Shown: one piece after another, positions 9,123 through 64,000 of the stretch | Layout of the letters: each line of letters begins with the position of its first letter | How positions within the stretch are numbered: position 1 is the first letter of the stretch | Source of the DNA: Bacteriovoracaceae bacterium | GTDB taxonomy: Bacteria > Bdellovibrionota > Bacteriovoracia > Bacteriovoracales > Bacteriovoracaceae | Direction: 5' to 3' | NCBI GenBank assembly: GCA_048270185.1 | Contig: JBLWTJ010000001.1 | Span: 320,001 to 384,000, forward strand | DNA length: 64,000 nucleotides | Program-made: the position numbers and the translations under genes | Notes under the pieces: generated by a model | What the model saw: only the letters and a program-made list of their open reading frames with translations | Database searches by the model: none | What the model was told of the DNA's origin: nothing

Positions 9123-9164
9123 GATAATCCTTTGAAAATAGTAATAATTCAAATTTTTCCATAT

Positions 9165-9180
9165 TGGCACTCATGTTGCA
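9165..9180 (+). promoter_or_regulatory. sigma54 (-24/-12) promoter
   Basis: TGGCAC-TCATG-TTGCA matches the consensus TGGCAC-N5-TTGCW; 36 bp upstream of the 1134-aa ORF. Confidence 0.75.
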
Positions 9181-9216
9181 ACTAATATCAATAAGAAGCA
9201 ATGAGAGAGGTATAAG

Positions 9217-12621: not shown

Positions 12622-12634
12622 AAAATCCTTGGGC

Positions 12635-13426
12635 CTACTTCATTGTCGAAGGGCCAAGAATATAATTTAATCCTAAGAATAAACTTGAACGATAGCCTCT
12701 TTTTGTTAAGGGGCTATCTTCCACCGCACTCGAATACTTCGTATAAGAATAGAAAGCATTAAGGGCATATTTATCAGCAACAGGGTAGTTAAAGATTAAT
12801 CGTCCACCATACTTATGAGTCGCATTTGGTGTAAACTCTGGGCGATCGGCGCGCGCTTCTTCTGGAGAGACACCAAAGTAATAACGAGACCAATTCTTTG
12901 TATGCTGAGCATAGAAAAGACCTGGCACAATACTAAGCTTTTTGTTCTTCCAAATATTAAATTGAAATGCCTTAGAAACCCCAAAAGAATATTTGATACC
13001 TTCTGAATGACCACTAATGTCTCGCTCAACTGAAAGGTTTGAAATGAAGTACTTACCAGGAATCATGAGAGTTAGGCCCAGATCAAGTGAGCGCTTGCGT
13101 CTAGTTAGGCCTTGATTATATTCACCATCATCGGGATCAACACTATTAAAGTCAGGCTTTAATGTAAGGCGTGTTAAAGGAAGTAGACGAAAACTTGCGG
13201 CCACACCACGAAATGAAAATCTCTTATAATTATAATTAATTGAAGGAACAACTGGGATATCGAAAGTATCGCCTTCTTTGTAGAGAGATGTTGAAAAACT
13301 TGATCCAAATCCAATCTGATTGGTTGGCGTGGGCCTTTTCGCTCTTTGTTTTTCTAAATTTTCTAATTGCTCAGTTCTGCCATTAGCAAAAACAAAGGGC
13401 CCATTTAACAGGGCCCCTATAAGCAT
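12635..13426 (-). CDS. MipA/OmpV-family outer-membrane protein
   Basis: YYFGVSPEEA, SAVEDSPLT and amphipathic beta-strands. Start refined to ATG 13426 (TAATG overlap with the upstream gene). Confidence 0.85.
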   Translation of the reverse strand: MLIGALLNGPFVFANGRTEQLENLEKQRAKRPTPTNQIGFGSSFSTSLYKEGDTFDIPVVPSINYNYKRFSFRGVAASFRLLPLTRLTLKPDFNSVDPDDGEYNQGLTRRKRSLDLGLTLMIPGKYFISNLSVERDISGHSEGIKYSFGVSKAFQFNIWKNKKLSIVPGLFYAQHTKNWSRYYFGVSPEEARADRPEFTPNATHKYGGRLIFNYPVADKYALNAFYSYTKYSSAVEDSPLTKRGYRSSLFLGLNYILGPSTMK

Positions 13427-14550
13427 TATTTTGAAAAGTACTTTTTGATTACTTGGCAAACATATTCGCATTCTTCTTCCGTGATATAAGCGTAACAAGG
13501 TAGGTTTAAAACGGCCTTACTAATGTAGTCCGCATTTCCATTATCAATTTTTCCAACTGAATATGCTGGAGCAGCTTCTTGCATACTCATTGCACCTGGA
13601 TAAATTGTTCCAAAACCAATATTTGCTTCTTTAAGAGCTTCCCCAAGTCCTTCTCTAAGCTCAGGATCAATTAGAGCAACTGAACAGTAACCATTCTCTT
13701 CAACATGTGAAGGAACTGACTGAAGCTTCAGCGGAAGTCCTTGTAGGTTTTCTTTATAGTAATTTACGGCCGCACGACGTGAATCAAGGCGTGCATCAAT
13801 ATGGTCTAGTGACATATTTAGAAATAGTGACTCGTATGCACCAATTCTTGAGTTCCAACCAATGAGGCCATGAGAATAGTGGCTTGTACGTCCATGATTA
13901 ATAAGCGTACGACAAGTATTAATTAGATTTTCATCAGTTGAGAAGATCGCACCAGCGTCTCCTGAAGCACCTAGAACCTTTGCAGGGTAGAAGCTAGTCG
14001 TTGAAATCTTCGCACTTCCAAGAATCGACTTTCCGTTAATTCTTGTTCCAAAGCACTGGGCCCCGTCTTCAATTAACATAACGCCAGCATCTTCTGCGAT
14101 CTTTCTAATTTCCATTGTATCTGGACATGCCCAACCATATAGGTGAACAAGGATGGCCGCTTTTGGCTTAAATTTCTCAATAGCTTCCTTAAAAGTTTCT
14201 TTATCCCAGTGAAGTGTTTCACGGTTTACATCAATTGTTGCAGGATTTGCACCAACGTTAACAACTGCTTCAAATGTTGCCCAAAAAGTCATATCTGGAA
14301 CAAGAACAGTATCGTTCTTCTCAACACCACTTGCACGTAGTGCAATTTGGATGGCATCAGTACCGTTGGCACAGCCAACAACGTGCTTTGCTTCGGCCTT
14401 GGCCTGTAGCTTTTCTTCGAGCATATTGACCTGAGGTCCGCCGATAAATTGTGTGTTATCAAATAATGTTTCGACACCTTTTAAAAATTCATCTCTGAAT
14501 CCATCTTCGAAACGATTTAGGGTAATAAATGGTACGCCGTTTACAGACAT
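13426..14550 (-). CDS. DegT/DnrJ/EryC1/StrS-family sugar aminotransferase
   Basis: ANGTDAI, VHLYG, IEDGAQ, SFYPAKVLGASGDAG, GWNSR. Confidence 0.92.
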   Translation of the reverse strand: MSVNGVPFITLNRFEDGFRDEFLKGVETLFDNTQFIGGPQVNMLEEKLQAKAEAKHVVGCANGTDAIQIALRASGVEKNDTVLVPDMTFWATFEAVVNVGANPATIDVNRETLHWDKETFKEAIEKFKPKAAILVHLYGWACPDTMEIRKIAEDAGVMLIEDGAQCFGTRINGKSILGSAKISTTSFYPAKVLGASGDAGAIFSTDENLINTCRTLINHGRTSHYSHGLIGWNSRIGAYESLFLNMSLDHIDARLDSRRAAVNYYKENLQGLPLKLQSVPSHVEENGYCSVALIDPELREGLGEALKEANIGFGTIYPGAMSMQEAAPAYSVGKIDNGNADYISKAVLNLPCYAYITEEECEYVCQVIKKYFSK

Positions 14551-14744
14551 AATTCCTCGCTTGAGTAAGTGATTTTAGACCATTATATGGGAAATGAGAT
14601 GACTTAGAAATGGAAATTTTACCTACAAATAGGCGAGTAGTTTACTCAATAAATTTCAGGCTACACTATATATAGTTTTGACACCCCAGTTTATTTTTCA
14701 ATAGCGTTCATTCCTGAATAAATTTCTGTTATTTTGGACGCATT

Positions 14745-15710
14745 ATGATGAAAAATAGCCTAAAAACACTCGCTTCAATACTTCTAATTTCTCAATCATT
14801 TGCTTCACAGGCAATCTCAATGGATGCTACAAGCTTTCGTGAGACCATTGAAGGAGTCATTTCACTCTATGATAGTGAATTACCAGCTAATCGCAATATT
14901 GATATTTCATGGGAATCTGAGACTCTAAACGCTTCCGTTGGGCTTGGAAAGAATGGTGTGACAAATTTTAGTTTCCACGGTGGTTTTGCGAGAGAAAATA
15001 ATCTCAATCAAGATGCCTATGCCGTGGTTGTTTGCCATGAAGTCGGCCATATTGTTGGAGGTTATCCGAAGGTGATGCCAACTCAGAAGTACACAAGTGA
15101 GGCCCAGTCAGATTACTTTGCTGCCAATGACTGCTTAAAGAAATTCTTTGCTAGTAAGCCAATCAATTTAGCTCAAATAGATCTTTCCAATATTGATGAA
15201 AAGAAGATCGCCGATTGCCGAGAAGATCAATTATGTCTTAGAGGTCTTGCGGCCATTCGTGATGTATCTGTGATTTATCCGGGCTCAAGTATTAATGCAA
15301 AAGAAAATAAGGTTGCAGAGTTTACTAACTTCAACTCATACCCATCAAATCAATGTCGTGTCGATACACTAGTGGCAGGCCTAATGAGGCATCCAAGGCC
15401 TACTTGTTGGTTTAAGGGTTATCAGAAAGATCGTTATGAGTATGAGCCTGAGTACGAATATGAAGAAGCGCAGATCGTTGCTGAGATCACTACGATTACA
15501 CCGACATTCTATGGTTGCCACCTTACGACAAAATACCCTGACTACTGGCGTACAGGCTACTTTTCGTCATTGACTGAAAGTGATTTAATGACAATTGGGG
15601 CCACGATGGTAGGGGATTGTTCAAAGTATAAAGTAGGCGGGACTCTAAGTGGTGTTCTGACACTCTTTAAAAAGGCATTGTATTTAAATATTGAAGCGAG
15701 AGATATGTAG
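14745..15710 (+). CDS. secreted putative zinc metallopeptidase
   Basis: Signal peptide; CHEVGH...EAQSDYFA; paralogous to 51000-51815. Confidence 0.7.
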   Translation: MMKNSLKTLASILLISQSFASQAISMDATSFRETIEGVISLYDSELPANRNIDISWESETLNASVGLGKNGVTNFSFHGGFARENNLNQDAYAVVVCHEVGHIVGGYPKVMPTQKYTSEAQSDYFAANDCLKKFFASKPINLAQIDLSNIDEKKIADCREDQLCLRGLAAIRDVSVIYPGSSINAKENKVAEFTNFNSYPSNQCRVDTLVAGLMRHPRPTCWFKGYQKDRYEYEPEYEYEEAQIVAEITTITPTFYGCHLTTKYPDYWRTGYFSSLTESDLMTIGATMVGDCSKYKVGGTLSGVLTLFKKALYLNIEARDM

Positions 15711-15803
15711 TCATACCCGATTTTTTTACTTTTTTTTAAGTTTTATTTGCGCACCTTGCCCTCAATAATAATGAAATAATTCATTTAAAAACTTGGGGGC
15801 CAT

Positions 15804-16319
15804 ATGAAATATTTCATTTGTATTTTATTACTTTTTTCTGCGCACGCATCACGTTCAAAATTTGGAACATCATCAAAAATAAGCTTTCGCTGTCAAGTTG
15901 ATATCTTCAATAAGCTAGTTGATCCAACAACATATAAGGCCTATGCAGGTGACTTAGTTAATTCAGTCATGCACGAGCAATATAATAATGTCACAGACCG
16001 TGATCTTAAAAAGCTTGTGGAATTAGATAATGGTAAGAGCTTATTTTCAAATGCATTAATTGGTGGTGCTGGCTATCTTAGATGGTCAGTCATTGAAACA
16101 AATGATGATGGCATCGTCGTTGATCTCGAAAATATCAAGTCACCAATCACGGCCCGTACCATTTACAGTAACCGTGCTCATGATCACGCAAGAAATATGA
16201 AATCAATCGGAGAGTCAGATTCATATCTGTATCGAATTGAATGTTCTAAAGTCGATACAGACGGTAAGGATGTGAAAAAACCGACAATGAATAAAGGTGT
16301 CGCAACATATCCAAACTAG
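15804..16319 (+). CDS. secreted hypothetical protein
   Basis: Signal peptide (…SAHA-S); G-rich RBS. Confidence 0.7.
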   Translation: MKYFICILLLFSAHASRSKFGTSSKISFRCQVDIFNKLVDPTTYKAYAGDLVNSVMHEQYNNVTDRDLKKLVELDNGKSLFSNALIGGAGYLRWSVIETNDDGIVVDLENIKSPITARTIYSNRAHDHARNMKSIGESDSYLYRIECSKVDTDGKDVKKPTMNKGVATYPN

Positions 16320-16336
16320 TGTAAAATAGACCTTAT

Positions 16337-17665
16337 ATGGTCGATGATTTAAATGAGAATAATGTTTATGACTGCATCGTTATTGGTGCAGGGATTGCAG
16401 GCTTAACAGCAGCCTACGAGCTACATAAAGCAGGTCTAAGAGTACTTATCCTTGAGTCCAAGGACTACGTTGGTGGCCGTATCCAAACCATAAGCACAGA
16501 TCAAAAGCATGTTGATACAGGAGCGCAATTCTTTAGCTCTGAGTACCATACAATCCTATCTCTTATTAAAGATTTAAATTTGGAAAATTCGCTAGGGGAG
16601 ACATCCCCAAAAGCGGCCAGCTTAAAAGATAGGAAGCTTCGAATACTTAATAAGAATAATCCTCTGTCCCTTTGGCTAAGTGGTCTTTTTGGTTTCATGG
16701 ACTTTATGAAATTAGGATTATCAATTTTTAAATTACAATCAAAATTAAAGAAAATTCGTCTTGAACGAATAAGTGATTGGCATGAATTTGATAATGAAGA
16801 TGCTGCAAGTTGGTCATTAAAAAACCTTAATAAAAATATCTTGGATTATCTTATCGAGCCTTTTATTTCAGGGTTTACTTACACATCTCCTGAGAAATCT
16901 TCGGCCATGTTAGCGGCGAGAACCCTTGGGCACCTGAGTGCTAATACGGATCTTTTGGCCTTAGAAAATGGCCTCTATATGATAATTGATGCCTTAGCAA
17001 AGAAGCTTGAAATCATTAAAAGCTGTGAAGTTCTTGAGATATCTGAAGGCAAAATATTAACAAATAAAGGGGAGTTTCACGCAGGGAAAATCGTGTGTAC
17101 AACCCCTAGTAAAACCGCCAAAAAATTGGCCTATATGCCCTATCAAAATTTAGAAATTTTTGACCTCAATTATTCGGCCACCATGCATTTATCCTACCTA
17201 ATTGATAAGGATTTGATTCCAAATAAAGATGGGATTTATGGCATGATGATAAGTCATCTGGAGAGTTCGTTAATTAATGTCGTATCTTTTGAAAGTTTTA
17301 AGCATCCAGGACTTGTCACAGATCCTTCAAAAGAATTGATCAATATTATGCTTACAAATTCAGGTGCTATGAAATTATGGGATTTATCTGATGATGAGAT
17401 CCATGATGAAATAATTCGAGAGCTCAAAATCGTTTTTAAGCTTCCTGAAATAAAAGTCCATGCAAAGACCTTAGTAAAATGGGATAAGGCCATACCGTTA
17501 TTTCATCAAGGACATGTTAAAGCGATATGCAAGTATCGTGATGAATTAAGTGCAGATGATACGTTATTCTTTGCAGGAGATTATCTGGGAACGCCGTGTT
17601 CGGAAGGTGCTGCCGAGTCGGCCAAATTCATTGCCGATGTCATCACATCTAAAAGATCATCATAA
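16337..17665 (+). CDS. FAD-dependent oxidoreductase (amine oxidase/protoporphyrinogen oxidase HemY-like superfamily)
   Basis: VIGAGIAGL, E..DYVGGR, DTGAQF, FAGDY...EGA..S. Confidence 0.85.
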   Translation: MVDDLNENNVYDCIVIGAGIAGLTAAYELHKAGLRVLILESKDYVGGRIQTISTDQKHVDTGAQFFSSEYHTILSLIKDLNLENSLGETSPKAASLKDRKLRILNKNNPLSLWLSGLFGFMDFMKLGLSIFKLQSKLKKIRLERISDWHEFDNEDAASWSLKNLNKNILDYLIEPFISGFTYTSPEKSSAMLAARTLGHLSANTDLLALENGLYMIIDALAKKLEIIKSCEVLEISEGKILTNKGEFHAGKIVCTTPSKTAKKLAYMPYQNLEIFDLNYSATMHLSYLIDKDLIPNKDGIYGMMISHLESSLINVVSFESFKHPGLVTDPSKELINIMLTNSGAMKLWDLSDDEIHDEIIRELKIVFKLPEIKVHAKTLVKWDKAIPLFHQGHVKAICKYRDELSADDTLFFAGDYLGTPCSEGAAESAKFIADVITSKRSS

Positions 17666-17739
17666 GGGTTAATATTGCCTTATATGTCACATGGGATATT
17701 TAGGCTAAAATAAGAAGATATTGATTTCATATACGCCTT

Positions 17740-17767
17740 ACCCCATATAACGAATATTATATGGGGT
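17740..17767. other. perfect 11-6-11 inverted repeat, dif-like recombination-site candidate (site A)
   Basis: ACCCCATATAA-CGAATA-TTATATGGGGT; 28 bp, intergenic between convergent genes. Confidence 0.55.
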
Positions 17768-17829
17768 GATTTGTTTTCCCCCTCTATCACATATCCCAGA
17801 TCATTTAATTCAAATTATCGACTAATTGC

Positions 17830-18321
17830 TTAGCCAATAATTCGAATCACTGGGTCCATAAATTTCGAATTCTTTGAAATTCGTCCAGGTACTGCAAAGA
17901 AGAAAATCATCATAAGATAATTCACTATTGGTAGTATCATTAAAACGACTGCAATAAACACATAACGAAATTTCAAGCTTCCAAAAATATCTCTTAGTCT
18001 CTTTAAATGAAAAAGAATAATTCGATAGACATAAAGAATTGAAATCATCAAAAGCCATACTGAACATAAGAGATTCCCCATCGGAGATGGCCTTATCCCT
18101 GCACGAAGGGTTTCATTAAATAATAGATCGACATTTAAGCTTAAAGTTCCAAAGTCAAACAGGCCATATGCTATTGAGTAAACCTTGAAAGTATCTGTTC
18201 CATAGATAAAAAATAGCCCAGATAAACTTAGAATAAAGAGCAATACGTTTGTAAGTACAAAACCTTGAAGTAGAAAATTAGAGCGACTTGATACACCCTT
18301 CCAGCTGCTGAATAATTTCAT
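17830..18321 (-). CDS. membrane protein, DUF805-like
   Basis: FSSWKG..SRSNF start, KRLRD motif and 3 TM segments, the DUF805 layout. Confidence 0.6.
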   Translation of the reverse strand: MKLFSSWKGVSSRSNFLLQGFVLTNVLLFILSLSGLFFIYGTDTFKVYSIAYGLFDFGTLSLNVDLLFNETLRAGIRPSPMGNLLCSVWLLMISILYVYRIILFHLKRLRDIFGSLKFRYVFIAVVLMILPIVNYLMMIFFFAVPGRISKNSKFMDPVIRIIG

Positions 18322-18479
18322 CGAATACTCTCCTAAATATTTATCTTCAAGAACTATACTATGAAATCACAAGAGCATTCATTCATTTTATATACACACC
18401 CTATAGATTATACAACATATTATATTTGCACAGGGTTTCCTGATATATTCAAAAAAACTTATATTATGAGGAGCCAGTT

Positions 18480-18917
18480 ATGATCAAAATATTATTTGCA
18501 ATAATCGCTTTAAACTTCTCTGTAATGGCCTCAGAAGAGTTAGTCCTTGAAGGTCAGTCTGGATATTTGCCTAAAGGTGAAGTTGAATTTGAACTAATAG
18601 ATGAATCATGTGGATTAGTCCTTGTAGATGGTAAGCACTTTGGAGCCTTCTTAGGTGATCAGCAATACTATTTCACAGATGTAAAGACAATAACTCCACA
18701 ACAAAATCCAAACTTAAAGAGCCCTGTATATATAGGTTCATTTGAAATTGAAGCCAACGATGATTCAAGGCCAGTAAAAACTGTAAAAATCATGGTTAGA
18801 ACTTACGGCAATACACTTGATCCAATCAGAAATATTAATGCTTTTCGAATAGAGCTTTTCGATAAACATAAGAAGTCTTTGGCGGCAGCTCTTTGCGTTG
18901 ATGTAAGCAAGAAGTAA
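18480..18917 (+). CDS. secreted hypothetical protein
   Basis: RBS GAGGAG; signal peptide (…SVMA-S). Confidence 0.75.
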   Translation: MIKILFAIIALNFSVMASEELVLEGQSGYLPKGEVEFELIDESCGLVLVDGKHFGAFLGDQQYYFTDVKTITPQQNPNLKSPVYIGSFEIEANDDSRPVKTVKIMVRTYGNTLDPIRNINAFRIELFDKHKKSLAAALCVDVSKK

Positions 18918-18922
18918 AAAGC

Positions 18923-19483
18923 CTAGGCAATAAGTCCAATTTTTCGCTCAACACTCTTGTCGTGTAGAAAGAACTTAACTTGCTGCTTATAGAAATCACA
19001 AATAGTTTTTTCCATTTCACTATAGACCTGCTTTTCTAAGTAGGTCTCATACTCTCCTGCTTTAATCTGCATGTCTGTCTTATCTTGGATATATTTAAAG
19101 TAAATCGTGTCTTCAACTTTCTTATAACTAATATCAAATTTAATATTTTCAGCAGGCTGAAGTGTCTTATTAGCGTCGATATGAAGTCGTAAGAGAATTG
19201 AAAAAACCCAGTAACCATTATCAGCAAGTTTTACGGCACCGTGAGGAGTGTACGAAATATCCTCGTCAATTGGTGTATAGAGCTCTTCCTCGCCTTCTAA
19301 TAGCTCAGGATCAACATGGATCGTTTGCACAAGCTTAATAAGATCGTATTCATTTTCTTTTAGGCCTAAGTACTTCTTAAAACCATGGAATAAGACACTT
19401 GCAAATGTCGTGGCATCTTCATGGGCCTTAAAGAAGAGTTCTCGTGATTTCTTATATTCATTACATAGATTGAGGTATGACAT
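18923..19483 (-). CDS. hypothetical protein
   Basis: Intact ORF; ATG 19483 preferred over TTG 19510. Confidence 0.65.
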   Translation of the reverse strand: MSYLNLCNEYKKSRELFFKAHEDATTFASVLFHGFKKYLGLKENEYDLIKLVQTIHVDPELLEGEEELYTPIDEDISYTPHGAVKLADNGYWVFSILLRLHIDANKTLQPAENIKFDISYKKVEDTIYFKYIQDKTDMQIKAGEYETYLEKQVYSEMEKTICDFYKQQVKFFLHDKSVERKIGLIA

Positions 19484-19571
19484 AAGGAATAGTTCGGAAT
19501 ACTTACACAAATCAAAAGTTATGATTTCTAAAATAAATCTTTAAGTAGCACAGGTGACGAATAAGAAATTG

Positions 19572-20006
19572 CTATGCAAAAGTGATTGCTAAAACAAAAA
19601 TCAAGATCAAACCAATGACAATCGCTTCAAAGACGTACGTCTTGTTTGTTTCCGGTGCTTTAAACTCACCTGTTAAGCGAAAGTGTGAATCATTAATGTT
19701 ATTTATCACGTATTGAATTTTTCCAAGAGGTGTAAGTCCTGTGAAGTCATAGAGAACTTCTCGATTCTCACAAATGGCCGTGTAAGGAACTCCACGAACA
19801 CCAAAGTTGTCCGCAATCTCAGGACTCTCCATGGTATTGACTTCATAAACATTTATATCGGGATTATTTTCACTTAAGGCCTCAAAGACAGGGGCCATTG
19901 TTTTGCATGGGCCACAAGTATCAGAGTAAAACTTGATAACGAATACACCTTTTTCACTAGATGCAATCGATTCAAAGTTTTCGTTATTCATTTTTTTAAT
20001 ATTCAT
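19572..20006 (-). CDS. thioredoxin-family protein with C-terminal transmembrane anchor
   Basis: FYSDTCGPCK, FGVRGVP cis-Pro loop, hydrophobic C-terminus; ATGA overlap with the recombinase. Confidence 0.85.
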   Translation of the reverse strand: MNIKKMNNENFESIASSEKGVFVIKFYSDTCGPCKTMAPVFEALSENNPDINVYEVNTMESPEIADNFGVRGVPYTAICENREVLYDFTGLTPLGKIQYVINNINDSHFRLTGEFKAPETNKTYVFEAIVIGLILIFVLAITFA

Positions 20007-21019
20007 TCGACTTCCTTATCTTCCTTATCTCCCTGATCTTCACCAAGATAATTCACAATATTTGCAATCTCATTAATCTTCTCTTTACGGCGCTTGTTAT
20101 AGAGAAAGGTCATACGAGGGTCTGAGTGCCTGGCATAAGTCGCTTGATCCTCAAGGCTTGCGCCATTCTCATAGAGGTTTCCAATCCCTGTAGCACGAGA
20201 TGAGTGCGGTGAGATTCTGTGTTTGATTCCTGCAAGCTTAGCATATTTTTGAAAGATCTGGTCAATTGTGTTTCGGTTTAAAGGCCCAAGCTCATGTGAC
20301 TTTCGACCTGATGTAAAGAGAGGCTCACTCTGCGCAAACTCACGCCTTAAACTAAAGACTTCAATGTAGAATTTAATATCGTTAAAAGTCTCATCAGAGA
20401 GATAGACCTTTTGCTTCTTTCCACCCTTACTTTTTACATGCAGGTAATTGCCAATATTATCGCTGGCGAAGTCCCCTACTTTAAGGCCAATAATTTCAGA
20501 CTTTCTCAGTAAGGTATGGAACATGACTTTTAGAATCGTTAAGTGAAGCACGCCACTTAGATTATAGCTGCCATCCTTATTATGGAGAGTGACACTCTCA
20601 AACATATCCACAACCTCAGAGGCCGAAAGATCATTGGTCTTAACTTCCATAACGACCTTAGGCCTAAAGACACCTGTGGCCGGATTCTTATAGCAAAGCT
20701 CCTTTTCCACTAGGAAATCAAAGAAGCGCTTAATAGAAGAAAGATGCCTTGCTACTGTCGCATCCTTAAGCTCTTCATTCTTTAAAAGATGGTCACGGTA
20801 GGCCGAGATATGGCGTTGGGAAACGTCTGATAGGTTTGAGAAGGTCTCAAATCCCTTTAAAAACGTTAGAAACTTCTTTAGGTCTCTCTTATAAGCATCT
20901 CTGGTATGGATGGAATTGGACTTAGTTAAGAAGTCCTCAAAGATATCATTAATGCGCGCACTTGAACGCCTAGGGCCTACGGCACGAGATCCATTTCTGG
21001 CGTAGCTTACTTCAACCAT
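20003..21019 (-). CDS. tyrosine recombinase (Xer/integrase family), recombinase 1
   Basis: N-terminal core-binding domain (TRDAYKRDL, TVARHLSSIKRFF) and a full catalytic set: R (LRKSE), K (KSKGGK), HxxR (HSSR), H (ARH), Y (TFLY). Confidence 0.93.
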   Translation of the reverse strand: MVEVSYARNGSRAVGPRRSSARINDIFEDFLTKSNSIHTRDAYKRDLKKFLTFLKGFETFSNLSDVSQRHISAYRDHLLKNEELKDATVARHLSSIKRFFDFLVEKELCYKNPATGVFRPKVVMEVKTNDLSASEVVDMFESVTLHNKDGSYNLSGVLHLTILKVMFHTLLRKSEIIGLKVGDFASDNIGNYLHVKSKGGKKQKVYLSDETFNDIKFYIEVFSLRREFAQSEPLFTSGRKSHELGPLNRNTIDQIFQKYAKLAGIKHRISPHSSRATGIGNLYENGASLEDQATYARHSDPRMTFLYNKRRKEKINEIANIVNYLGEDQGDKEDKEVE

Positions 21020-21630
21020 TACTGGAAAGCCTTTGTGTCACTTGTGTGCTTTAAGCTCTTAGACCATGAATCAAGGGCATCTAATAAGTTCTCCTTAGGC
21101 GAGATAACCCAAGTATTAATCTGTGTGATTTCGGACTTTGTGAATGCCTCTAATAAGTCCTCTTCATCAAACATGAATTCAAAGTGGAGGCGCTTAAAGA
21201 TATGGCGCCCTTTTAAGACACGGGCCTGATAGTGATCAGCTTGCCCAATACGCCCATGTTTCTTATTTGATATAAGTAATTCCGTATCGGCGATAATTTG
21301 ATCAAAGAGATTTCTAAGCTTTGTAAGAAGCCTCTTTTTGCGAATTAACTCCTTATCATAGTTTTCAACTAGGGCCTTGAGGATGGTTCCAAGCCCTGGC
21401 TTCTTACGTGTTATCTTTGAGGCCACAAGATCATAGGCCCATGATAGATACTTATTCTTAATCATAAGGGTCTTATGGATAACATTATCATCTATGTGTT
21501 TACTTGCGTATTCACTCACAGAGCTTCCCTGAGAGAGAATAATCATATCGTATTCGTCGTACTTAGGTGCTTCAATTAATGGTGTGGATGCTTGAGATGT
21601 CCTTCCAGACAGTGATCTAAGCTGTGTCAT
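21019..21630 (-). CDS. hypothetical protein, possible ribbon-helix-helix DNA-binding protein
   Basis: ATG 21630 has RBS AAGGAG (alternative start 21675); TAATG coupling to the recombinase; RHH-like pattern KTLMI-helix-GLGTILKALVENY. Confidence 0.7.
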   Translation of the reverse strand: MTQLRSLSGRTSQASTPLIEAPKYDEYDMIILSQGSSVSEYASKHIDDNVIHKTLMIKNKYLSWAYDLVASKITRKKPGLGTILKALVENYDKELIRKKRLLTKLRNLFDQIIADTELLISNKKHGRIGQADHYQARVLKGRHIFKRLHFEFMFDEEDLLEAFTKSEITQINTWVISPKENLLDALDSWSKSLKHTSDTKAFQ

Positions 21631-21652
21631 AACCGCTCCTTGGTTATATATT

Positions 21653-21682
21653 ATTTTATCAAACACATGGGTCATTTATCAA
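21653..21682 (-). promoter_or_regulatory. sigma70-type promoter of the recombinase-1 operon
   Basis: TTGATA-N18-TAAAAT with an extended -10 TG. Confidence 0.5.
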
Positions 21683-21711
21683 TTTTTCCCCACGTAAGAT
21701 TTTAAAAATTA

Positions 21712-21745
21712 ATATCTAGGCATAACTCCAATTATGCCTAGATAT
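21712..21745. other. perfect 14-6-14 inverted repeat, dif-like recombination-site candidate (site B)
   Basis: ATATCTAGGCATAA-CTCCAA-TTATGCCTAGATAT; the core GCATAA-N6-TTATG equals the core of E. coli dif. Confidence 0.55.
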
Positions 21746-21795
21746 ATTATATGTTAGTTATAAAATGAAAACATGTCATGTTTTTAAGAGTGAAA

Positions 21796-22311
21796 TTAAG
21801 CGGACATATCTAAGTCATTTACTTCAATTTCATTTAGTGATTGTTTCTCATAGGCATCAAAAGTCATTTCAATACTTTTTTCACTTAATCGATCAAGTCT
21901 TGGATGAAGAAAGGCTGTCAGGCCAATACTTGCTAAGTATGAAACCACAAAGAGTTCGACAGAAATTCCATTAGCGATATAGCCCATGAAGCCTAAGATA
22001 ATCACGGCCTGAGCAAAGGCCCATGATGAAACCCAGCCAGTAAAGACTTCATTGCGATAGACTTCATAAGAGCGGCCATATTTAAGAGTTTTAGTAACGA
22101 TTCTTTCGTCATTGAATAAAATAAAAAAGTAAACAAGTGAAAGAGACGCTGGAGCAAGACTTAGGATTTGAAAATTTGCTGTGATATCGGGATTATTTCC
22201 ACCTTCGATAATTCCACCGACAACCATGTAGAAGAGAAATGTTTGGGTAATTAGCATCGAGGCATATACAAGCTTAGTCATAAATTTCACGTGTCCAATA
22301 TTTCCATTCAT
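21796..22311 (-). CDS. hypothetical membrane protein (about 4 TM)
   Basis: Hydrophobic segments; G-rich RBS (GGGAGAG). Confidence 0.7.
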   Translation of the reverse strand: MNGNIGHVKFMTKLVYASMLITQTFLFYMVVGGIIEGGNNPDITANFQILSLAPASLSLVYFFILFNDERIVTKTLKYGRSYEVYRNEVFTGWVSSWAFAQAVIILGFMGYIANGISVELFVVSYLASIGLTAFLHPRLDRLSEKSIEMTFDAYEKQSLNEIEVNDLDMSA

Positions 22312-22477
22312 TCGTCTCTCCCCCGCCTTTATTGTTTCGTGTTCATCAACAATTATTAGGGAGAGTCTAGGTTATCTCCTAGTAAAATGATTATTCATTA
22401 ATTCCAGTGACTTATCTCTGCAATCTTTAGTTGATCAAAGATAGTGGATATTACCTTTTAAAAACAAATACTTAGCT

Positions 22478-22504
22478 TAAGAAAACCTTAACAATTTCCG
22501 ATAA
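22478..22504 (+). promoter_or_regulatory. sigma28 (FliA)-like promoter
   Basis: TAAG-N15-TCCGATAA upstream of the DUF285 lipoprotein. Confidence 0.55.
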
Positions 22505-22629
22505 TTAAGCTGAGGTCAATAAAATATAATGCCTCATATAATTGCTACTTTATAAGTTAGCTCTCCCTTTAAATTATTGATATAGGGCCAAGTTAACTTT
22601 CTTTCGATTACCGGGGATATGATTTGAGA

Positions 22630-24723
22630 ATGACGAGGATATTACTTTTAATTTCAACATTATTTCTAATTACTGCTTGCGGAAAGAAGGCTTCAACTAA
22701 TGCAACGATCAGCATCGTTTCGGGCCTTTCAAGTGTAACGACTCTCTTTGCCGGTGGCGCTCATCTCTTTGCCACAAATTCTGATACTGGTGTTAAGCGA
22801 TCGATTGAGTTAACTGATACGACAATGGATATCGAATTTGATAACGGGACTTGGGATTTATCTTTCTATGCGTGGGATGATCCGAATATGGGAAGTATGC
22901 CATATTGTAATAAGATGACAGGTGTTGTTCTTGATGGAGCGGCAATTGAGCTAAGTGTTTCGATGCTTCAAGATGCTTCTTGTCAGCTAACAAGTAATAT
23001 CAATCTTCACTCTCCAGTTATGGGTGCAACAATTCCAATTGTTATGCCGGCCTCATCGATTAAGGTACATCTTCTAAATTACGATTCAGCTCCAAAGCAT
23101 AGTTTTGGAATGAAGCCGGGCCTAAATTTTTCAAGTCACAATATCTGCGTTGGTGACACTGGACTTACAGTAAACGATCCTCTAGATGTTGGAACTTATC
23201 TTCAAAATATTCCAGAAGAAAATGCTCCTTTCTACATTGAGGTCTTTGACGGTGTAGCCGATTGTTCTGGCTCAACAACTCGTGAATACTTCTCTCCAAC
23301 AGGTATATATACCGTAGCCGGCGACCTTACGGCAGATCTTTACCAGATTCCGCTTACTGACTTTATCTTTACTGTAAAAGTTCTTGTTGGGGGAAATTCA
23401 TTTGTCGCTCCAGTTAAGTCTGGTGGGACATATAACTTCACGATTGATTATGGTGATGGCTCAGCAAGTGAGACTATCGTCTCAGATGCTCCAGCGGGAC
23501 ATACTTACTCTGCGACAGGACAGCATCTCGTTCGAATCTCTGGGGAAATGAGTGGAGTTGAAGTTGCAGATAATGCAAATATGTATGTTGAGAATGTTAT
23601 GAACCTTGGGGACACCAAAACTCAGGATTATTCTGGTGCATTTCATGGACTATCCAATTCGGGAGTAAATCTTAATAGTATAGCAGGCGGATTCACTTCC
23701 TCAGCAACAGATATGTCAATATTTCTCCGCTTTCTTGGCCTTCTGACAAGGGTCGATTTGTCTAGTTTTGATACTTCAAATGTGACTTCAATGAGCGGCA
23801 TGTTTGCATCATCAAACGCTATCACACACTTAAACCTTAAAAACTTTAACACTAGTAAAGTTACAGACATGACTTCGATGTTCAATTATTGTCAATCACT
23901 AGAAGAAATAAACGTAAGCTCATTTGATACTACAAATGTAACAAATATGACCAATATGTTTAAGGATACGGTTAGCCTGACAAGCCTGGATCTTAGTTCC
24001 TTTAAAACACCAAATTTAACGTCAATGCATTACATGTTTAGAAATACAACTAGTTTAACTGATTTAGACATTAGTAACTTTGAAACTTCCAGTGTTACAA
24101 GTATGCTTGGTGCATTTGAGCAAGCAACAAGTCTAACAAGCCTAGACTTAAGTCACTTCGATACTTCAAGTCTTACAAATATGAGTGGTATGTTTTCCGG
24201 AGCGACTAATTTAACGAATCTGAATATAAGCAGCTTTGATACATCTAATGTGACAATTATGACTAGTTTGTTTGCTGGTACATCTTCATTAACAAGCCTT
24301 GATCTTAGTCATTTCAATACTTCAAATGTTACAACAATGGCGTCTATGTTCAAAGATATGACTAATTTAACAAGCTTGAATGTTAGTAGCTTTGATACTT
24401 CATTAGTAACAAATATGGCTTATATGTTTTCAGGGGCACAAAGCTTAACATTTCTAAATACACCTTTTGATACAACTAATGTAACTAATATGGCCTATAT
24501 GTTTAGCGATATGACTTCCTTAAATGCAATCGATTTTTCTTCATTTGATTACTCAAGCGTTACGGATATGTCATACTTTCTAAGTGGATCTCCTGTTACT
24601 ACAATCCAAGATTCCGGAACAAATTATAATGCTCCAGTTCTTATGAGTTCAACTTCGCTAATAGACAGTGGAACATGTACATATGATTATACATATCCAA
24701 CGCTGACATTTTCCTGTCCTTAG
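22630..24723 (+). CDS. BspA/DUF285-type repeat surface lipoprotein with a PKD-like domain
   Basis: Lipobox LITA-C; IDYGDG..HTY PKD-like segment; 11 repeats of about 26 aa (LDLSSFDTSNVTxMxxMF). Confidence 0.88.
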   Translation: MTRILLLISTLFLITACGKKASTNATISIVSGLSSVTTLFAGGAHLFATNSDTGVKRSIELTDTTMDIEFDNGTWDLSFYAWDDPNMGSMPYCNKMTGVVLDGAAIELSVSMLQDASCQLTSNINLHSPVMGATIPIVMPASSIKVHLLNYDSAPKHSFGMKPGLNFSSHNICVGDTGLTVNDPLDVGTYLQNIPEENAPFYIEVFDGVADCSGSTTREYFSPTGIYTVAGDLTADLYQIPLTDFIFTVKVLVGGNSFVAPVKSGGTYNFTIDYGDGSASETIVSDAPAGHTYSATGQHLVRISGEMSGVEVADNANMYVENVMNLGDTKTQDYSGAFHGLSNSGVNLNSIAGGFTSSATDMSIFLRFLGLLTRVDLSSFDTSNVTSMSGMFASSNAITHLNLKNFNTSKVTDMTSMFNYCQSLEEINVSSFDTTNVTNMTNMFKDTVSLTSLDLSSFKTPNLTSMHYMFRNTTSLTDLDISNFETSSVTSMLGAFEQATSLTSLDLSHFDTSSLTNMSGMFSGATNLTNLNISSFDTSNVTIMTSLFAGTSSLTSLDLSHFNTSNVTTMASMFKDMTNLTSLNVSSFDTSLVTNMAYMFSGAQSLTFLNTPFDTTNVTNMAYMFSDMTSLNAIDFSSFDYSSVTDMSYFLSGSPVTTIQDSGTNYNAPVLMSSTSLIDSGTCTYDYTYPTLTFSCP
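23752..24600 (+). repeat. 11 tandem coding repeats of about 78 bp (26 aa)
   Basis: Repeated xDxSxFxTSxVTxMxxMF units in the translation. Confidence 0.85.
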
Positions 24724-24732
24724 GCGTGCCTA

Positions 24733-25281
24733 TCAAACATCCTGATCACTCGGAATCGACAAAACCTGCGACTCAAAGGGATCACTGATATTGATAAAGT
24801 AGTAGCACTTATTATTATCAAGCATAAATCCATGAGGTGATTTTTCAGACATCTGAATACGCCATCCTGATGCTAATATCGGCACATCAACTTTAAAGAG
24901 ATTTTCTTCTAGGTCATAGTAGAAATTCACAAGTGTCACCTTGAGGTAGCGTTGATCGCGGGAGAGTTCACTAACATGGGCAATACTGAAAGAATAGATC
25001 GTTCCCATGGGCTGCACCCCCTTTAAAAGGGCCGAATGCTCTGGGATAGCATGGTAGTAGAAGGCCCGCTCAAAATCCTTAATACACTTAAAAGATGTAG
25101 AATTGCGCTGTCCTATATTATCAAGATTCTCCTTGGCCTTAATGCCGCGCTCGTGCCACTGGTCAGATAAAGCTGCTGACTTTGAAGATGGATTACGTGC
25201 TTCTTTGGACTTGTCATTACTTGAACAAGAGAACGCACTGAAAATAAAAATCGTAAATAGAATGAAGAGGGCCTTAAGCAT
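24733..25281 (-). CDS. hypothetical lipoprotein
   Basis: Hydrophobic N-terminus ending SAFS-C. Confidence 0.65.
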   Translation of the reverse strand: MLKALFILFTIFIFSAFSCSSNDKSKEARNPSSKSAALSDQWHERGIKAKENLDNIGQRNSTSFKCIKDFERAFYYHAIPEHSALLKGVQPMGTIYSFSIAHVSELSRDQRYLKVTLVNFYYDLEENLFKVDVPILASGWRIQMSEKSPHGFMLDNNKCYYFINISDPFESQVLSIPSDQDV

Positions 25282-25342
25282 AGAAGACTTCTCGGTGAGA
25301 AATTCTATCTTCTGGACTGGCTTAGGCCCTTCTTAAGAAAAC

Positions 25343-25726
25343 TTAATAAACTGAGCTAAAACATGAAAGCTCAAATGAGCGAGTGTAATTATCGCTTAAG
25401 CGAGTAAGTACAAGCTCAACTGGTAAGTAACTTGTCGCCTTACCAATGAATTCAGTTGGAATATTAATTAATTCTCTAATTGGCCCTTCCTTTGTTTCAT
25501 AAGTATGAACTTCATCATTCACACCAACAAAGAAGAGATCTTTTAAAATTCTGTGCTCATCAGGAAGATGCACACCATTAGTTGCAAAGTAAGTTGAATC
25601 ATCACCATTTAAATTGATAACAAAACCGTTTGTTGAATAAGAATCTGCTTCAGAACATTGAATATACTGACGTGCGCTTACAGACACAGAAAGTAGAAGT
25701 CCTAGAACGACTAAGATATTTCTCAT
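25343..25726 (-). CDS. secreted hypothetical protein
   Basis: Signal peptide (…SVSA-R); RBS GGGGGA; terminal Cys pair. Confidence 0.75.
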   Translation of the reverse strand: MRNILVVLGLLLSVSVSARQYIQCSEADSYSTNGFVINLNGDDSTYFATNGVHLPDEHRILKDLFFVGVNDEVHTYETKEGPIRELINIPTEFIGKATSYLPVELVLTRLSDNYTRSFELSCFSSVY

Positions 25727-25794
25727 ATAAATTCCCCCTATCGAATTTAAAATTAAAAAATCCTATGAGGGAGAGTTTGATATGTCAAACTAAA

Positions 25795-27411
25795 TTATAA
25801 TTCTTTGGTCAGATCCCACAACTTGGCACGACGTGAAATATACTTATTATCCTTATCGAGATGATCATTGAGATAGAGGTCTGTCACTAAGGCCTTAATT
25901 GCATCCTTAACATTGTCCGCGTAGTAGTCATTGTACTCGTCCTTATCAAGTCTTTTAGCTCTAAGACTATCAATCGTTTTAGGAAGCTCATTTTCAAGGT
26001 TCTTAAGTGTTAATTCAAGATCTCTTACTACATAGGCATCATAGATTGCCGAAGCAATGAAGCGCCCCTCAGGAAGTTTACGATATTCTTCGCTACTTTT
26101 TAAATCCTTGTCATTATCAACATCATTAAGCATTTTGTTAACCTTTGTAATCTTAGGGTCTTCTTCGTCAATTCCGACTTTAATCATCGATGCAATATGA
26201 TGCCCAATAGGATTAAAATAAGAAGAATTAGTCATGGCAATATAAGCATGGCCCACTTGATTTTCAGGATTTTCATTATTAAATTCAGTTACAGCGGCTC
26301 GAAAATTCTTAGATAAATAGGCCTTACCAGTATAGTCTCGTAGAACTTCAAGGTAGTCTTCTGTAATACCGCCAATATGTTCAGTATCACATGCACGACA
26401 AGCGGCCTTAACACGTTCCTCTTCCTTCTTATCATCTTCACTAGGATCATCATAAGATAGACAACAATCCTCACAAGGATAAGCATATTCAACTCCGTGA
26501 TAATGAACATGCCCTAAATTGTGAATTTGCTCATGAAAGAGTGTTTTTCTTAGTTCTTGCTTTCGCTGCTTAACTTCATCTTTTGATAGACCGCTTGCTG
26601 GGTCTCCAGGATTAACAGAGATATAGGGATGAGAAACTTTTCCATCTAAGATCTTTTCAGAGTCAGGGCCTGCAGATGCATGCGCATATACACCAGTCCA
26701 TGACAGATAGTCTGTTTCAGAACAAACAACTGTAACATTGTTTTTACTCAAGAGACTTTCTAGATCATGGGCCAAAGTCTTTGCACCATTACCTTTCAGA
26801 TTTTTAAGACATGAGATTCCAGTAAAGATTGACTCTTTTAGGAATTCTGGAAAATTCGCTCCCCAATTATTTATACATTGAGGGTCAATTTCATAACCGA
26901 AGCTTGTTGGAATAAAGCCACCTACAGCATTAGCAGCAATCGAAGACATCAGAATTGAAAACTTATCAATAGACTCTGTTCCAAATGAATATTCCTTATG
27001 AGTACAGTCACTATTTTGAATCAAGTCATAATGGTTCTTATATTCGATTTCATATTTCCCATCGTGATCCTTATCTATCTGGATCTTTACTTGTACTTTT
27101 TGTTTATCTCGTATTGATAACTTATGAGTTTCAATGCGATCAAATTTTTTATCACTATTTGTATCAACATAGATTCTCTTAATGGTTCCAGGAATTTTAT
27201 ACTTTGTAATTCTCTCAAAATATCCATCAACATTGCGATCTTCATGCAATTCAAAAAGCGTCTTATGCTCTTTATCAAGATAGACTTCAATTCGATCAGC
27301 TTTACCATCCTTATTGATATCGATATTTTTACGAAATAACTTACGTGGAGACTCTCCAAAAGAAGAGAGGGCAAAGCTTGAGATGAGAAATAATGGAATG
27401 AACGATTTCAT
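25795..27411 (-). CDS. secreted metzincin-like metallopeptidase with Ca-binding Dx[DN]xDG repeats
   Basis: Signal peptide; DINKDGK, DRNVDGY, DTNSDKK, DKDHDGK; HEQIHNLGHVH = HExxHxxGxxH. Confidence 0.72.
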   Translation of the reverse strand: MKSFIPLFLISSFALSSFGESPRKLFRKNIDINKDGKADRIEVYLDKEHKTLFELHEDRNVDGYFERITKYKIPGTIKRIYVDTNSDKKFDRIETHKLSIRDKQKVQVKIQIDKDHDGKYEIEYKNHYDLIQNSDCTHKEYSFGTESIDKFSILMSSIAANAVGGFIPTSFGYEIDPQCINNWGANFPEFLKESIFTGISCLKNLKGNGAKTLAHDLESLLSKNNVTVVCSETDYLSWTGVYAHASAGPDSEKILDGKVSHPYISVNPGDPASGLSKDEVKQRKQELRKTLFHEQIHNLGHVHYHGVEYAYPCEDCCLSYDDPSEDDKKEEERVKAACRACDTEHIGGITEDYLEVLRDYTGKAYLSKNFRAAVTEFNNENPENQVGHAYIAMTNSSYFNPIGHHIASMIKVGIDEEDPKITKVNKMLNDVDNDKDLKSSEEYRKLPEGRFIASAIYDAYVVRDLELTLKNLENELPKTIDSLRAKRLDKDEYNDYYADNVKDAIKALVTDLYLNDHLDKDNKYISRRAKLWDLTKEL

Positions 27412-63108: not shown

Positions 63109-63150
63109 CCTCATCTTACCCCCTATAAAATTCTAAGTTAAAATGAATTC

Positions 63151-64000
63151 ATGTTTTTACTTAAGCAAGAAGACTGTGGACATAGTTTTAATCTGGATGA
63201 AGAATTCTTTGAAAACTTCACCTCAATTCATACACGCAAGTCCTATTTGAATGATATCAATCAATTCTTAGCTTGGATTGAAGACTATTATAAAATTAAC
63301 GCATTTGACGATATTGAAAGAATCCATGTCATCAAGTATCGAAACTACTTAAGTGAGTTTGGAGGCCATAATCAAAATGCTTCCACTCCAAAAACAATTA
63401 ACCGAAAACTTGCAAGTCTTAGTGCTTTTTTTAAATACCTTGTTGAAAAAAATCATCTTAAGGCCAACCCTGTATCCAGTGTTAGACGTCCACGTAGTGA
63501 GGTTAAATCCCCAACAAATGCCTTAAATAAAGAACAAGTGTTGGATCTCTTCTATCACATGGGGCAAAACCAAAATAGCAAGTATCTTCACCTTGCCCTC
63601 TTTGTTACTTTCTTTACAACAGGACTAAGAAAGAGCGAGATTTTAAATTTACGTTTTAAAGATTACCAAAAGCAAGGTGCAAATATGGTTTTGCAATATC
63701 GTGCCAAGGGTGGAAAGCTTGGAAAGAAGTTTTTAAATCCAGTAGCAGTTAAGGCCATCGAAGAATATATTGATTGGATGAATGAGAATAAACGTGAAAC
63801 CGGAGATAACGATTGGCTATTCCAACCAACACGTAATCCAAGTGATCCCCAAAATTTAAATAAACCACTTAATCCAAGAACAATTAACGAACTCCTTGAT
63901 CGTTATGCAAAGAAAGCTGGTATAGGCTTTAAAATCACTCCTCACTCTGCCAGAGCAACTTTCATTGGCGAGCTTCTTGAAATCGGTGTTGATATATACA
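63151..64000 (+). CDS. tyrosine recombinase 2 (3'-truncated; absent from the ORF track)
   Basis: Manual translation: MFLLKQEDCG...SIHTRKSYLNDI...TINRKLASLSAFFKYL...GLRKSEI...RAKGGK...ITPHSARATFIGELL; open to the window end. Confidence 0.92.
   Translation, partial: MFLLKQEDCGHSFNLDEEFFENFTSIHTRKSYLNDINQFLAWIEDYYKINAFDDIERIHVIKYRNYLSEFGGHNQNASTPKTINRKLASLSAFFKYLVEKNHLKANPVSSVRRPRSEVKSPTNALNKEQVLDLFYHMGQNQNSKYLHLALFVTFFTTGLRKSEILNLRFKDYQKQGANMVLQYRAKGGKLGKKFLNPVAVKAIEEYIDWMNENKRETGDNDWLFQPTRNPSDPQNLNKPLNPRTINELLDRYAKKAGIGFKITPHSARATFIGELLEIGVDIY

Follow-up and report, generated by a model that had tools for sequence, protein, structure and literature searches.

A 64,000-nucleotide stretch of the genome of a predatory marine Bacteriovoracaceae bacterium (assembly GCA_048270185.1, contig JBLWTJ010000001.1, positions 320,001 to 384,000) holds two perfect palindromes with the geometry of dif, the site of chromosome dimer resolution, on either side of a gene for a tyrosine recombinase. 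This raises the question of whether one of them is the dif of this chromosome, and which recombinase acts on it. The stretch is hereafter called the window (G000:C1:320001-384000; genome coordinate = window coordinate + 320000). The first palindrome, site A (17738..17769, no strand), consists of two inverted arms of about 11 bp and a 6-bp spacer bordered by ATAA and TTAT, with its 28-bp, 11-6-11 core ACCCCATATAA-CGAATA-TTATATGGGGT at 17740-17767. The second, site B (21712..21745, no strand), reads ATATCTAGGCATAA-CTCCAA-TTATGCCTAGATAT in a 14-6-14 arrangement. An initial annotation, made from the letters alone, had described both sites and an intact recombinase, here called Xer-1, between them; sequences and coordinates are exactly as it gave them, so that the observation is confirmed, and its interpretation is partly supported. 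The explanation that probably fits best overall is that site A is dif, that another recombinase, Xer-2, is its likely enzyme, and that Xer-1 and site B form a separate, genus-limited module.

The position of site A can be examined through the replication-related asymmetries of the genome. The maximum of the cumulative guanine-minus-cytosine count of contig C1 is a plateau that extends from 318 to 346 kb (window -2 to +26 kb) and contains site A. A de novo search for skewed 8-mers found all of those containing GGAGAGT on the leading strand only (e.g., 137:0 and 126:0). Strand counts of this 7-mer are 221:0 for C1 without the 328-348 kb segment, 0:60 for C2, and 51:0 for C3. When the 20 kb surrounding site A are set aside, these three contigs together contain 332 copies oriented with replication and 0 in the opposite orientation, for a composition-based expectation of about 123 per strand. 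Its density declines away from the terminus, from about 15-20 to about 9 per 100 kb, and on the 286-kb origin contig C4 (0:1) and on C5 (0:0) hardly any copies exist in either orientation. Close to the site, copies converge on site A (16209..19830), with forward copies at 16209 and 17260, and reverse copies at 18327, 19051, and 19824; further copies in the window are found at 8895 (+), and at 27351 and 49470 (-). The genome encodes an FtsK with a gamma domain, and GGAGAGT may be an FtsK guide motif. A switch of skew and of FtsK-orienting polar sequences (KOPS) near 17.7-21.7 kb had been proposed as a check on the presence of dif, and both the GC skew and the polar-motif switch are positive there.

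Relatives offer a further view of this position, with skew and polarity computed on windows of 80-200 kb. GGAGAGT flips around site A in all six relatives considered (G015, G083, G011, G008, G004, and G009), with counts within 100 kb either side of the site of 45:5 in G015 and 36:6 in G083. Relative to site A, the skew maximum is found at -3.8 kb in G011, +0.9 kb in G008, +5.6 kb in G004, and -19.6 kb in G009. G015 has its maximum on a plateau, at 15.6 kb from the site, which is placed at 0.50 of a 3.44-Mb contig, and in G083 a local skew maximum is found 0.8 kb from site A. Around the site there is also a zone of mixed GGAGAGT polarity (window 8900-27400, i.e., C1:328.9-347.4 kb), in which gene content varies among species, and likewise in G011, G008, G004, and G009. 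Such mixing within about 10-20 kb of dif points to DNA being often inserted or rearranged there.

The two palindromes are genuine, each in a single copy, and not due to chance. In the window, CATAA-N6-TTATG has 1 match vs 0.19 expected (at least one match in 17/100 shuffles), and ATATAA-N6-TTATAT has 1 match vs 0.04 expected (at least one in 4/100 shuffles). Perfect palindromes with a 6-nt spacer and arms of 10 bp or more number 67 in the 3.35-Mb assembly; the majority belong to AAAAGCC...GGCTTTT terminator types, and sites A and B are the only ones among these 67 with ATAA and TTAT adjoining the spacer. Ordinary terminators of this genome are GC-rich stems flanked by A and T runs. With up to 3 substitutions allowed, each site occurs once in the assembly, except for one unrelated 3-mismatch match to the site B core on contig C9. 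A GGGGAAAA-like motif near both A and B was dropped as a candidate common element, its order relative to the site differing between the two. Contigs of near-identical strains in metagenome runs X1 and X3 carry a C>A change at 17742, in the left arm of site A.

The conservation of site A extends well beyond this genome. Searched at up to 3 mismatches, CCCCATATAA-N6-TTATATGGGG is present as one copy in 10 of the 12 other genomes of the genus, and the site A pattern is found in 18/60 other genera vs 3 genomes for the reversed-pattern control. Reading of the flanks led to setting aside the matches in G016, G073, and G087, as well as one of the two G056 hits, as due to chance, and 14 genera with an accepted site A were retained. 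Across genera, the conserved unit is TACCCC-NN-ATAA, a 6-bp spacer, and TTAT-NN-GGGGTA, and the flanks of the site are unrelated among genomes. In an alignment of 20 homologs, the spacer measures 6 bp throughout and its sequence is variable. A count over these 20 sequences and 12 pairs gives 91.3% of cells paired, the same as in shuffles (313/500 as high), with one pair changed on both sides and 21 unpaired cells, mostly at the two NN positions. A search of Rfam returned no match in 15000-25000. Judged from these alignments, site A is conserved as sequence, and not as a hairpin structure.

This distinction bears directly on a reading in which A and B do no more than terminate transcription or act as insulating hairpins where genes end, and resemble dif by coincidence. 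Intrinsic-terminator geometry is present at both sites, which belong to the 9 terminator-like sites of the window (6.8 +/- 2.3 expected) and have stable folds, with z-scores of -4.0 for site A and -4.2 to -4.9 for site B. Their placement is also that of terminators: site A is intergenic, between convergent genes, 74 nt past the stop of the plus-strand gene 16337-17665, and is followed by TTTGTTTT, and site B is 50 nt past the stop of the minus-strand gene 21796-22311 and before an operon promoter. In addition, two compensatory pairs are found in B. What makes this reading very improbable is that the arms of A are kept as sequence in 14 genera with unrelated neighbours, with uncompensated changes, that A tracks the terminus and Xer-2 and is a precise insertion point, that no other of the 67 palindromes closes its loop with four A-T pairs, and that the gene on the 'terminated' side of B varies while B stays with the Xer-1 module. 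The initial annotation had named, as findings that would count against a dif, a lack of conservation in relatives, hairpins with compensatory changes and variable loop length, and a canonical XerCD dif elsewhere; the site is conserved, always has a 6-bp spacer, and lacks compensatory changes, and no canonical XerCD is present.

A further line of evidence comes from natural insertions in site A. In G008, a sister species, a full site A is followed, 8.6 kb on, by a copy in which the spacer and right arm are kept and the left arm is foreign. G004 offers the empty site, with a single site A, the right flank of which matches at 92% the DNA after the second G008 copy, and the left edge of which aligns with the first copy; the G008 insert is, therefore, placed exactly in site A. 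This insert (L091:10000-18631, i.e., G008:C1:674409-683040) has all its genes on one strand, including those for a winged-helix protein resembling replication initiators, a P-loop protein that weakly matches terminases, an SLT transglycosylase, and proteins of no assigned function. No integrase was found among the 11 open reading frames (ORFs) of the insert that were tested. Its replication protein was not found in the 61 family genomes sampled, a set to which G008 itself does not belong and which, thus, includes no positive control. By analogy with elements known elsewhere, an integrase-free insert in site A is the signature of Xer-exploiting elements. In G083, which belongs to another genus, a second copy with the same spacer and right arm is located 8.5 kb away, and the DNA between is a colinear, related insert (L072:1-8535). 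Taken with its position and conservation, this makes it very probable that site A is the chromosomal dif.

A few further occurrences of the site can be mentioned. Two IMG/VR viral contigs (L179 and L180) contain exact ACCCCATATAA-N6-TTATATGGGGT with other spacers, one of them 136 nt from the end of a 10.7-kb contig; they may be prophage calls that include the host dif, or elements with a dif-like attP. Weak hints also come from metagenomes, with a 334-nt contig in run X3 that holds only site A (17733-17767) between foreign flanks, and a 205-nt contig in run X6 (depth 2.7) that breaks off exactly at site A's left edge (17737) and continues into other DNA.

The identification of the enzyme starts with the canonical pair. 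No XerC or XerD is found above the NCBIfam cut-offs in this genome, in which three Xer-like genes were found (Xer-1, Xer-2, and Xer-3). In a scan of 81 phylum genomes with the XerD model, the 10 genomes of the family all score 125-165 bits, and among the 17 other families, 70/71 genomes give E<=1.6e-53, usually with two strong hits; the curated XerD cut-off itself is exceeded by 31/81 genomes. Xer-1 and Xer-2 reach 114-145 bits on the XerC and XerD models, for cut-offs of 330-335. Phylogenetic trees (quick maximum likelihood, LG+G4, with support from the Shimodaira-Hasegawa-like approximate likelihood ratio test (SH-aLRT) only, and without XerH, XerS, or XerA references) place the XerC and XerD of E. 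coli and of the phylum on one side (98), and Xer-2 (99-100) with its sister Xer-1 (100) on the other (98-99), the side on which third paralogs of other families also group. Following these profile scores and trees, the family has lost canonical XerC and XerD.

Xer-2 is a 318-aa (amino acid) Xer-like recombinase encoded by a plus-strand ORF that starts at 63151 and runs past the end of the window (63151..64000, to G000:C1:384107). Matches to Xer-2 are found in 56/60 other genera (E<=1e-10), with exactly one match in 40/61 genomes. The 14 genera in which Xer-2 reaches 54% identity or more coincide exactly with the 14 that have site A. Wherever one contig holds both, Xer-2 and site A are 1.3-45 kb apart, the larger distance being that of the present genome. 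On the NCBIfam models, Xer-2 scores 145 bits for XerC, 128 for XerD, 116 for XerA, and 86 for XerS, all below the cut-offs, and in the active-site alignment it keeps, as does Xer-1, the catalytic R, K, HxxR, H, and Y. Its best match among solved structures is the XerA of P. abyssi (4a8e, E 4.6e-15), and no XerH chain matching Xer-2 at E<=1e-5 was found in the PDB search. Considering the co-distribution of protein and site, Xer-2 is likely to be the enzyme of site A, and would be the protein that binds its arms.

In genera that are more distant, variant perfect palindromes are found close to Xer-2. In G071, CTACCCGATAA-TACCAA-TTATCGGGTAG is 5.6 kb from Xer-2 and about 0.1 kb from the skew maximum (80 kb examined), and the same variant, with other spacers, is located 1.7-2.3 kb upstream of the recombinase in 4/22 metagenome loci. 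G046 has a one-mismatch variant 1.9 kb from Xer-2, and G044 has CTTCCCTATAA-CTTCCA-TTATAGGGAAG at 1.0 kb; in G047 and G062, no variant palindrome is found within 40 kb either side of Xer-2. G002, of the same genus as the present genome, has an Xer-2 that is 85% identical to that of the window, and a candidate site, AAAAATAGTAA-TGGTAA-TTACTATCTTT, about 15 kb from it. Upstream of the Xer-2 gene in the window is a half-site that resembles a dif arm (TACCCCCTATAA, 63117..63128, plus strand), 34 nt before the start codon. It has counterparts in relatives, with TACCCAATATAA at the same place in G002 and TTACCCCAGATAA upstream of Xer-2 in G008 and G009, and may be an autoregulatory site.

The recombinase that actually lies next to the two palindromes, Xer-1, is less suited to this role. 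It is a 338-aa tyrosine recombinase (20003..21019, minus strand) with Pfam Phage_integrase and SAM-like domains and an intact R-K-HxxR-H-Y, and it scores 126 bits on the NCBIfam XerD model, for a 330-bit cut-off. Orthologs are present in 6/12 other genomes of the genus, at 87-89% identity in G004, G008, G009, and G011, and at 60-61% in G001 and G010. Relatives are rare: a search of 5.8 billion proteins gave no more than 16 clusters at E<=1e-20, and a metagenome scan with the Xer-1 alignment returned no Xer-1 relative of more than 34% identity. It was conceivable that Xer-1 acts at site A in this genome, alone or with Xer-2, since its active site is intact, its clade is sister to that of Xer-2, and in 6/6 genomes it lies 3.4-16 kb from A, with its side and orientation always the same. 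It is, however, only about 35% identical to Xer-2, forms its own clade, and travels with a different palindrome, and site A exists without it in four genomes of the genus (G003, G005, G006, and G007) and in 14 other genera, all of which makes a role at A improbable. The flanked recombinase, which the title of the initial annotation implied to be the enzyme at work here, is accessory, being present in 6/12 other genomes of the genus, and the role fits the family-wide Xer-2. On the other hand, the proposal of two separate recombinase/site pairs, with one site, A, as the chromosomal dif, has held.

Since A and B bracket a recombinase gene, with a cargo between them that varies from 3.4 to 16 kb among genomes, they could also be attL and attR of a 4-kb island excised or inverted by Xer-1. 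Six ORFs lie between the sites in the window, including a minus-strand operon of a 218-aa (or 203-aa) protein, Xer-1, and a thioredoxin-domain protein. Against such an island, the arms and spacers of A and B are wholly different, each is a perfect palindrome and not a hybrid, and A often occurs without B. The pair does not form the junctions of attL/attR or of integrative mobile elements exploiting Xer (IMEX), the hybrid pattern being found in G008 and G083 instead. No A-B joint occurs in contigs of 4 DNA runs, a weak result as contigs drop rare forms. The chances of this reading are negligible, in agreement with the initial annotation, which had argued against attL/attR from the arms and spacers; the different distributions of the two sites point the same way.

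Site B and Xer-1 are best described as a module. Site B accompanies Xer-1 in 6/6 genomes that carry Xer-1, with a conserved core, TAGGCATAA-CT(C/G)CAA-TTAT(G/A)CCTA, kept across Xer-1 orthologs of 60% identity. Beyond the genus, a family search for the site B pattern at 3 mismatches gave matches no more frequent than those of the reversed-pattern control. In all 6 genomes, the module is 3.4-16 kb from site A, on the same side, and points toward A. The first gene of the operon (21019..21675, minus strand) is a 218-aa frame, more likely 203 aa from 21630, with no Pfam or NCBIfam hit and only 5 clusters, with source names of Halobacteriovorax and one Oceanospirillum label. The model of the 203-aa protein is helical and of low confidence (predicted local distance difference test (pLDDT) 58), and the Atlas gave no lead for it (best score 0.77). 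The third gene (19572..20006, minus strand) encodes a thioredoxin-domain membrane protein (Pfam Thioredoxin 8e-20) and overlaps the Xer-1 stop; since relatives (G011, G009, G008, and G004) have it at other positions, it does not count as a fixed component of the module.

The upstream region of this operon is conserved as well. The conserved block extends from inside the Xer-1 gene to about 21797, and the gene beyond differs among genomes. Between site B and the operon is a conserved TTTTTCCCCACG block (21683..21694), T15-C22 of which is invariant in 7/7 sequences, and directly downstream of it is a predicted -35 box, TTGATA (21682-21677, minus strand). A second palindrome, AAACATG-T-CATGTTT (21769..21783), is located at the module's outer edge and is kept in 7/7 sequences except for the centre base. 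This AAACATG-N-CATGTTT is probably a protein-binding site, because its 1-nt centre is too short for an RNA loop. Just past the module is a 699-aa lipoprotein-like ORF (22624-24723, plus strand) with five DUF285 repeats (Pfam E 3.5e-86).

Site B is probably Xer-1's own site, and whether it serves as a recombination (crossover) site for Xer-1 is evenly balanced, given what can be said for an operator. In the latter case, A is dif, and B is an operator for Xer-1 or for the 203/218-aa protein, or an insulating hairpin of the Xer-1 operon. The centre of B is indeed about 45 nt upstream of the predicted -35 box, in an upstream region that is conserved as a whole, including the two further motifs, and the dif half-site before Xer-2 suggests that these recombinases may regulate themselves through their own sites. 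Moreover, there is no second copy or hybrid of B nearby in 5 genomes, no insertion is seen at B, and no exact or B-like match is found in viral contigs. The 7 available sequences of site B show two compensatory pairs, 7 unpaired cells, and variable outer arm positions, a pattern that would fit a hairpin or a symmetric protein site alike. Against an operator, the geometry of B is fully that of dif, with ATAA-N6-TTAT and an asymmetric spacer kept across 60%-identity orthologs, and B resembles dif variants of other genera. XerS/difSL also gives a precedent for a dif directly upstream of a recombinase gene, according to the parts of PMC2731167 consulted. The operator is, thus, a possible, rather doubtful, explanation, and B is here treated as the putative partner of Xer-1.

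The third Xer-like gene, Xer-3, is outside the window (G000:C1:123334-124326; locus L003:1444-2439, minus strand) and adjoins rnc. In the trees, it has a separate clade with a long stem. An alignment of 13 orthologs shows Lys in place of the first catalytic Arg, except for Arg in G071 and Asn in G013; the His of HxxR is Lys in most orthologs and the last His is Val, Leu, or Met, and the Tyr is kept. From these replacements, Xer-3 looks like a conserved pseudo-recombinase. The initial annotation had proposed a single-recombinase system, a description that calls for a caveat: there is one active family-wide enzyme, Xer-2, with exactly one Xer-2-like match in 40/61 genomes and symmetric arms at its presumed site, and there is a second family-wide Xer-like protein, Xer-3, with a conserved, degenerate active site (K/K/V for R/H/H). 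One binding specificity would be enough at site A, because the two arms are identical.

A more elaborate arrangement can be considered, in which two orthogonal Xer/dif pairs at the terminus, with a catalytically dead Xer-3 as partner or regulator, would form a three-part replacement of XerCD unlike XerS, XerH, and XerA. There, GGAGAGT, missing from about 290 kb around the origin, would steer Xer-2 on its symmetric dif, and Xer-1 with site B would serve either for backup resolution or for the docking of mobile DNA at a private site. Taken jointly, these propositions are speculative and rather unlikely to hold together.

In the simpler arrangement, with site A as dif and Xer-2 as its enzyme, copies of Xer-2 would bind the two near-identical arms of site A, with their outer CCCC and inner ATAA, after replication. 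Strand exchange across the 6-bp spacer would then convert chromosome dimers into monomers, with Xer-2 probably guided by FtsK reading the polar GGAGAGT. Site A would serve as dif for a large part of the family (Halobacteriovorax and relatives, Bdellovibrionota). The second, genus-limited module, made of site B, the 203/218-aa protein, and Xer-1, would be parked 3.4-16 kb from dif.

Several observations weigh against this interpretation. Over about 10 kb on each side of site A, GGAGAGT occurs in both orientations, and hand counts of misoriented copies for a switch at A vs B are 6 vs 8 in G000, and 9 vs 13, 9 vs 9, 5 vs 8, and 9 vs 11 in other genomes, so that the fit of a polar-motif switch is only modestly better at A than at B. 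Sites A and B both score as terminator-like hairpins, each after a stop codon, and the weak symmetric covariation of site B would also be expected of a hairpin. Within the genus, no site A is found at up to 3 mismatches in G002 (99% complete) and G012 (73% complete), and the right outer arm is degenerate in G009 and G011. The half-site upstream of Xer-2 is confined to the genus, being absent in the 11 other genera examined. A gene for a 346-aa tyrosine recombinase is located 40 nt outside the second junction of G083, and such inserts may not rely on host Xer alone. Finally, the 'single' part of the description is challenged by Xer-3, which is as widespread as Xer-2 (single copy in 57/60 genera) and may have a role at dif.

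Other tyrosine recombinases are also found near Xer-2. In several genera, a further family of enzymes, whose N-terminal domain contains an insertion and whose active sites are intact, is encoded 7-20 kb from Xer-2, e.g., at L109 (G046:C3:163358-164511), G044:C6:141287-143917, and G071:C1:1686877-1687863. The extra recombinases near Xer-2 in G071 and G046 were considered as Xer-3 orthologs and rejected, the true orthologs being elsewhere. A palindrome with an ATATAA-N6-TTATAT core is present 0.1-1.7 kb from that recombinase gene in G046 and G044; the one in G046, with its A/T-run flanks, may be a plain terminator.

If confirmed, this system would add a family of predatory bacteria to the single-enzyme replacements of XerCD, with sister families in the phylum that keep XerCD. 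This would allow the switch to be dated and investigated inside a single phylum. The perfect symmetry of the site raises the question of how the order and directionality of strand exchange are set, for which the asymmetric spacer and FtsK loading are candidates, and culturable Halobacteriovorax would make the system testable. In practice, site A indicates where the terminus is in these genomes and where integration is concentrated. No paper was found on Xer or dif in Bacteriovorax or Halobacteriovorax, in a search that extended to neither the supplementary tables of PMC2731167 nor those of PMC3025954, and the consulted portion of a 2017 review on Xer (PMC5357621) makes no mention of these genera.

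Regarding known systems, the canonical XerCD/dif of E. coli shares with site A the 28-bp 11-6-11 format, ATAA-N6-TTAT, a low G+C content, an intergenic position, the skew maximum, converging motifs, and use by elements. It differs in that no XerC or XerD ortholog is present here, and in that the two outer arms here, instead of each being specific to its own protein, are identical. Within the phylum, a classical XerCD/dif is predicted for Bdellovibrio bacteriovorus HD100, as stated in the sections seen of Carnoy and Roten 2009 (PMC2731167) and of PMC11318664. The inserts in site A can be compared with IMEX such as the CTX, VGJ, and TLC phages, as described in part of PMC5357621: the 8.6-kb G008 insert has no integrase gene and is exactly in site A, with a full site at one end and, at the other, a copy in which the spacer and one arm remain. 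In contrast, the A-B interval of the window is without hybrid sites, and the G083 insert has a tyrosine recombinase gene just outside its junction.

Nearest to the present system are XerA/dif, XerH/difH, and XerS/difSL, with Xer-2 below the profile cut-offs for XerA and XerS and without an XerH match in the PDB. The archaeal dif core is ATATAA-N6-TTATAT. As in XerA/dif of the Thermococcales, in the portion of Cortez et al. 2010 (PMC2958812) consulted, there is one recombinase, with a terminus site toward which short polar words point, and the site is not necessarily beside the gene. Xer-2, however, is bacterial and scores 116 bits, vs a 220-bit cut-off, on the XerA model, and an FtsK with a gamma domain is present here, whereas archaea are without FtsK according to the same portion of that article. 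XerH/difH of Campylobacterota and XerS/difSL of streptococci and lactococci are likewise single-recombinase replacements of XerCD in one lineage, as far as the excerpts of PMC2731167 and PMC5357621 go. They also have a terminus dif that is sometimes right beside the gene, which is here the case in G044, G046, G068, and G071. The Helicobacter XerT, a second Xer paralog linked to a mobile element in the part of PMC8138268 available, provides a parallel to Xer-1. Differences are that Xer-2 scores 86 bits vs a 267-bit cut-off for XerS, that no XerH chain matches it at E<=1e-5, and that difSL is only relatively symmetric, with biased binding (passages of PMC5357621), whereas the arms here are perfectly symmetric in many genomes. 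Overall, the system is set apart by its XerCD-bearing sister families, perfect arm symmetry, an absolutely polar 7-mer, a neighbouring second module, and a conserved degenerate paralog.

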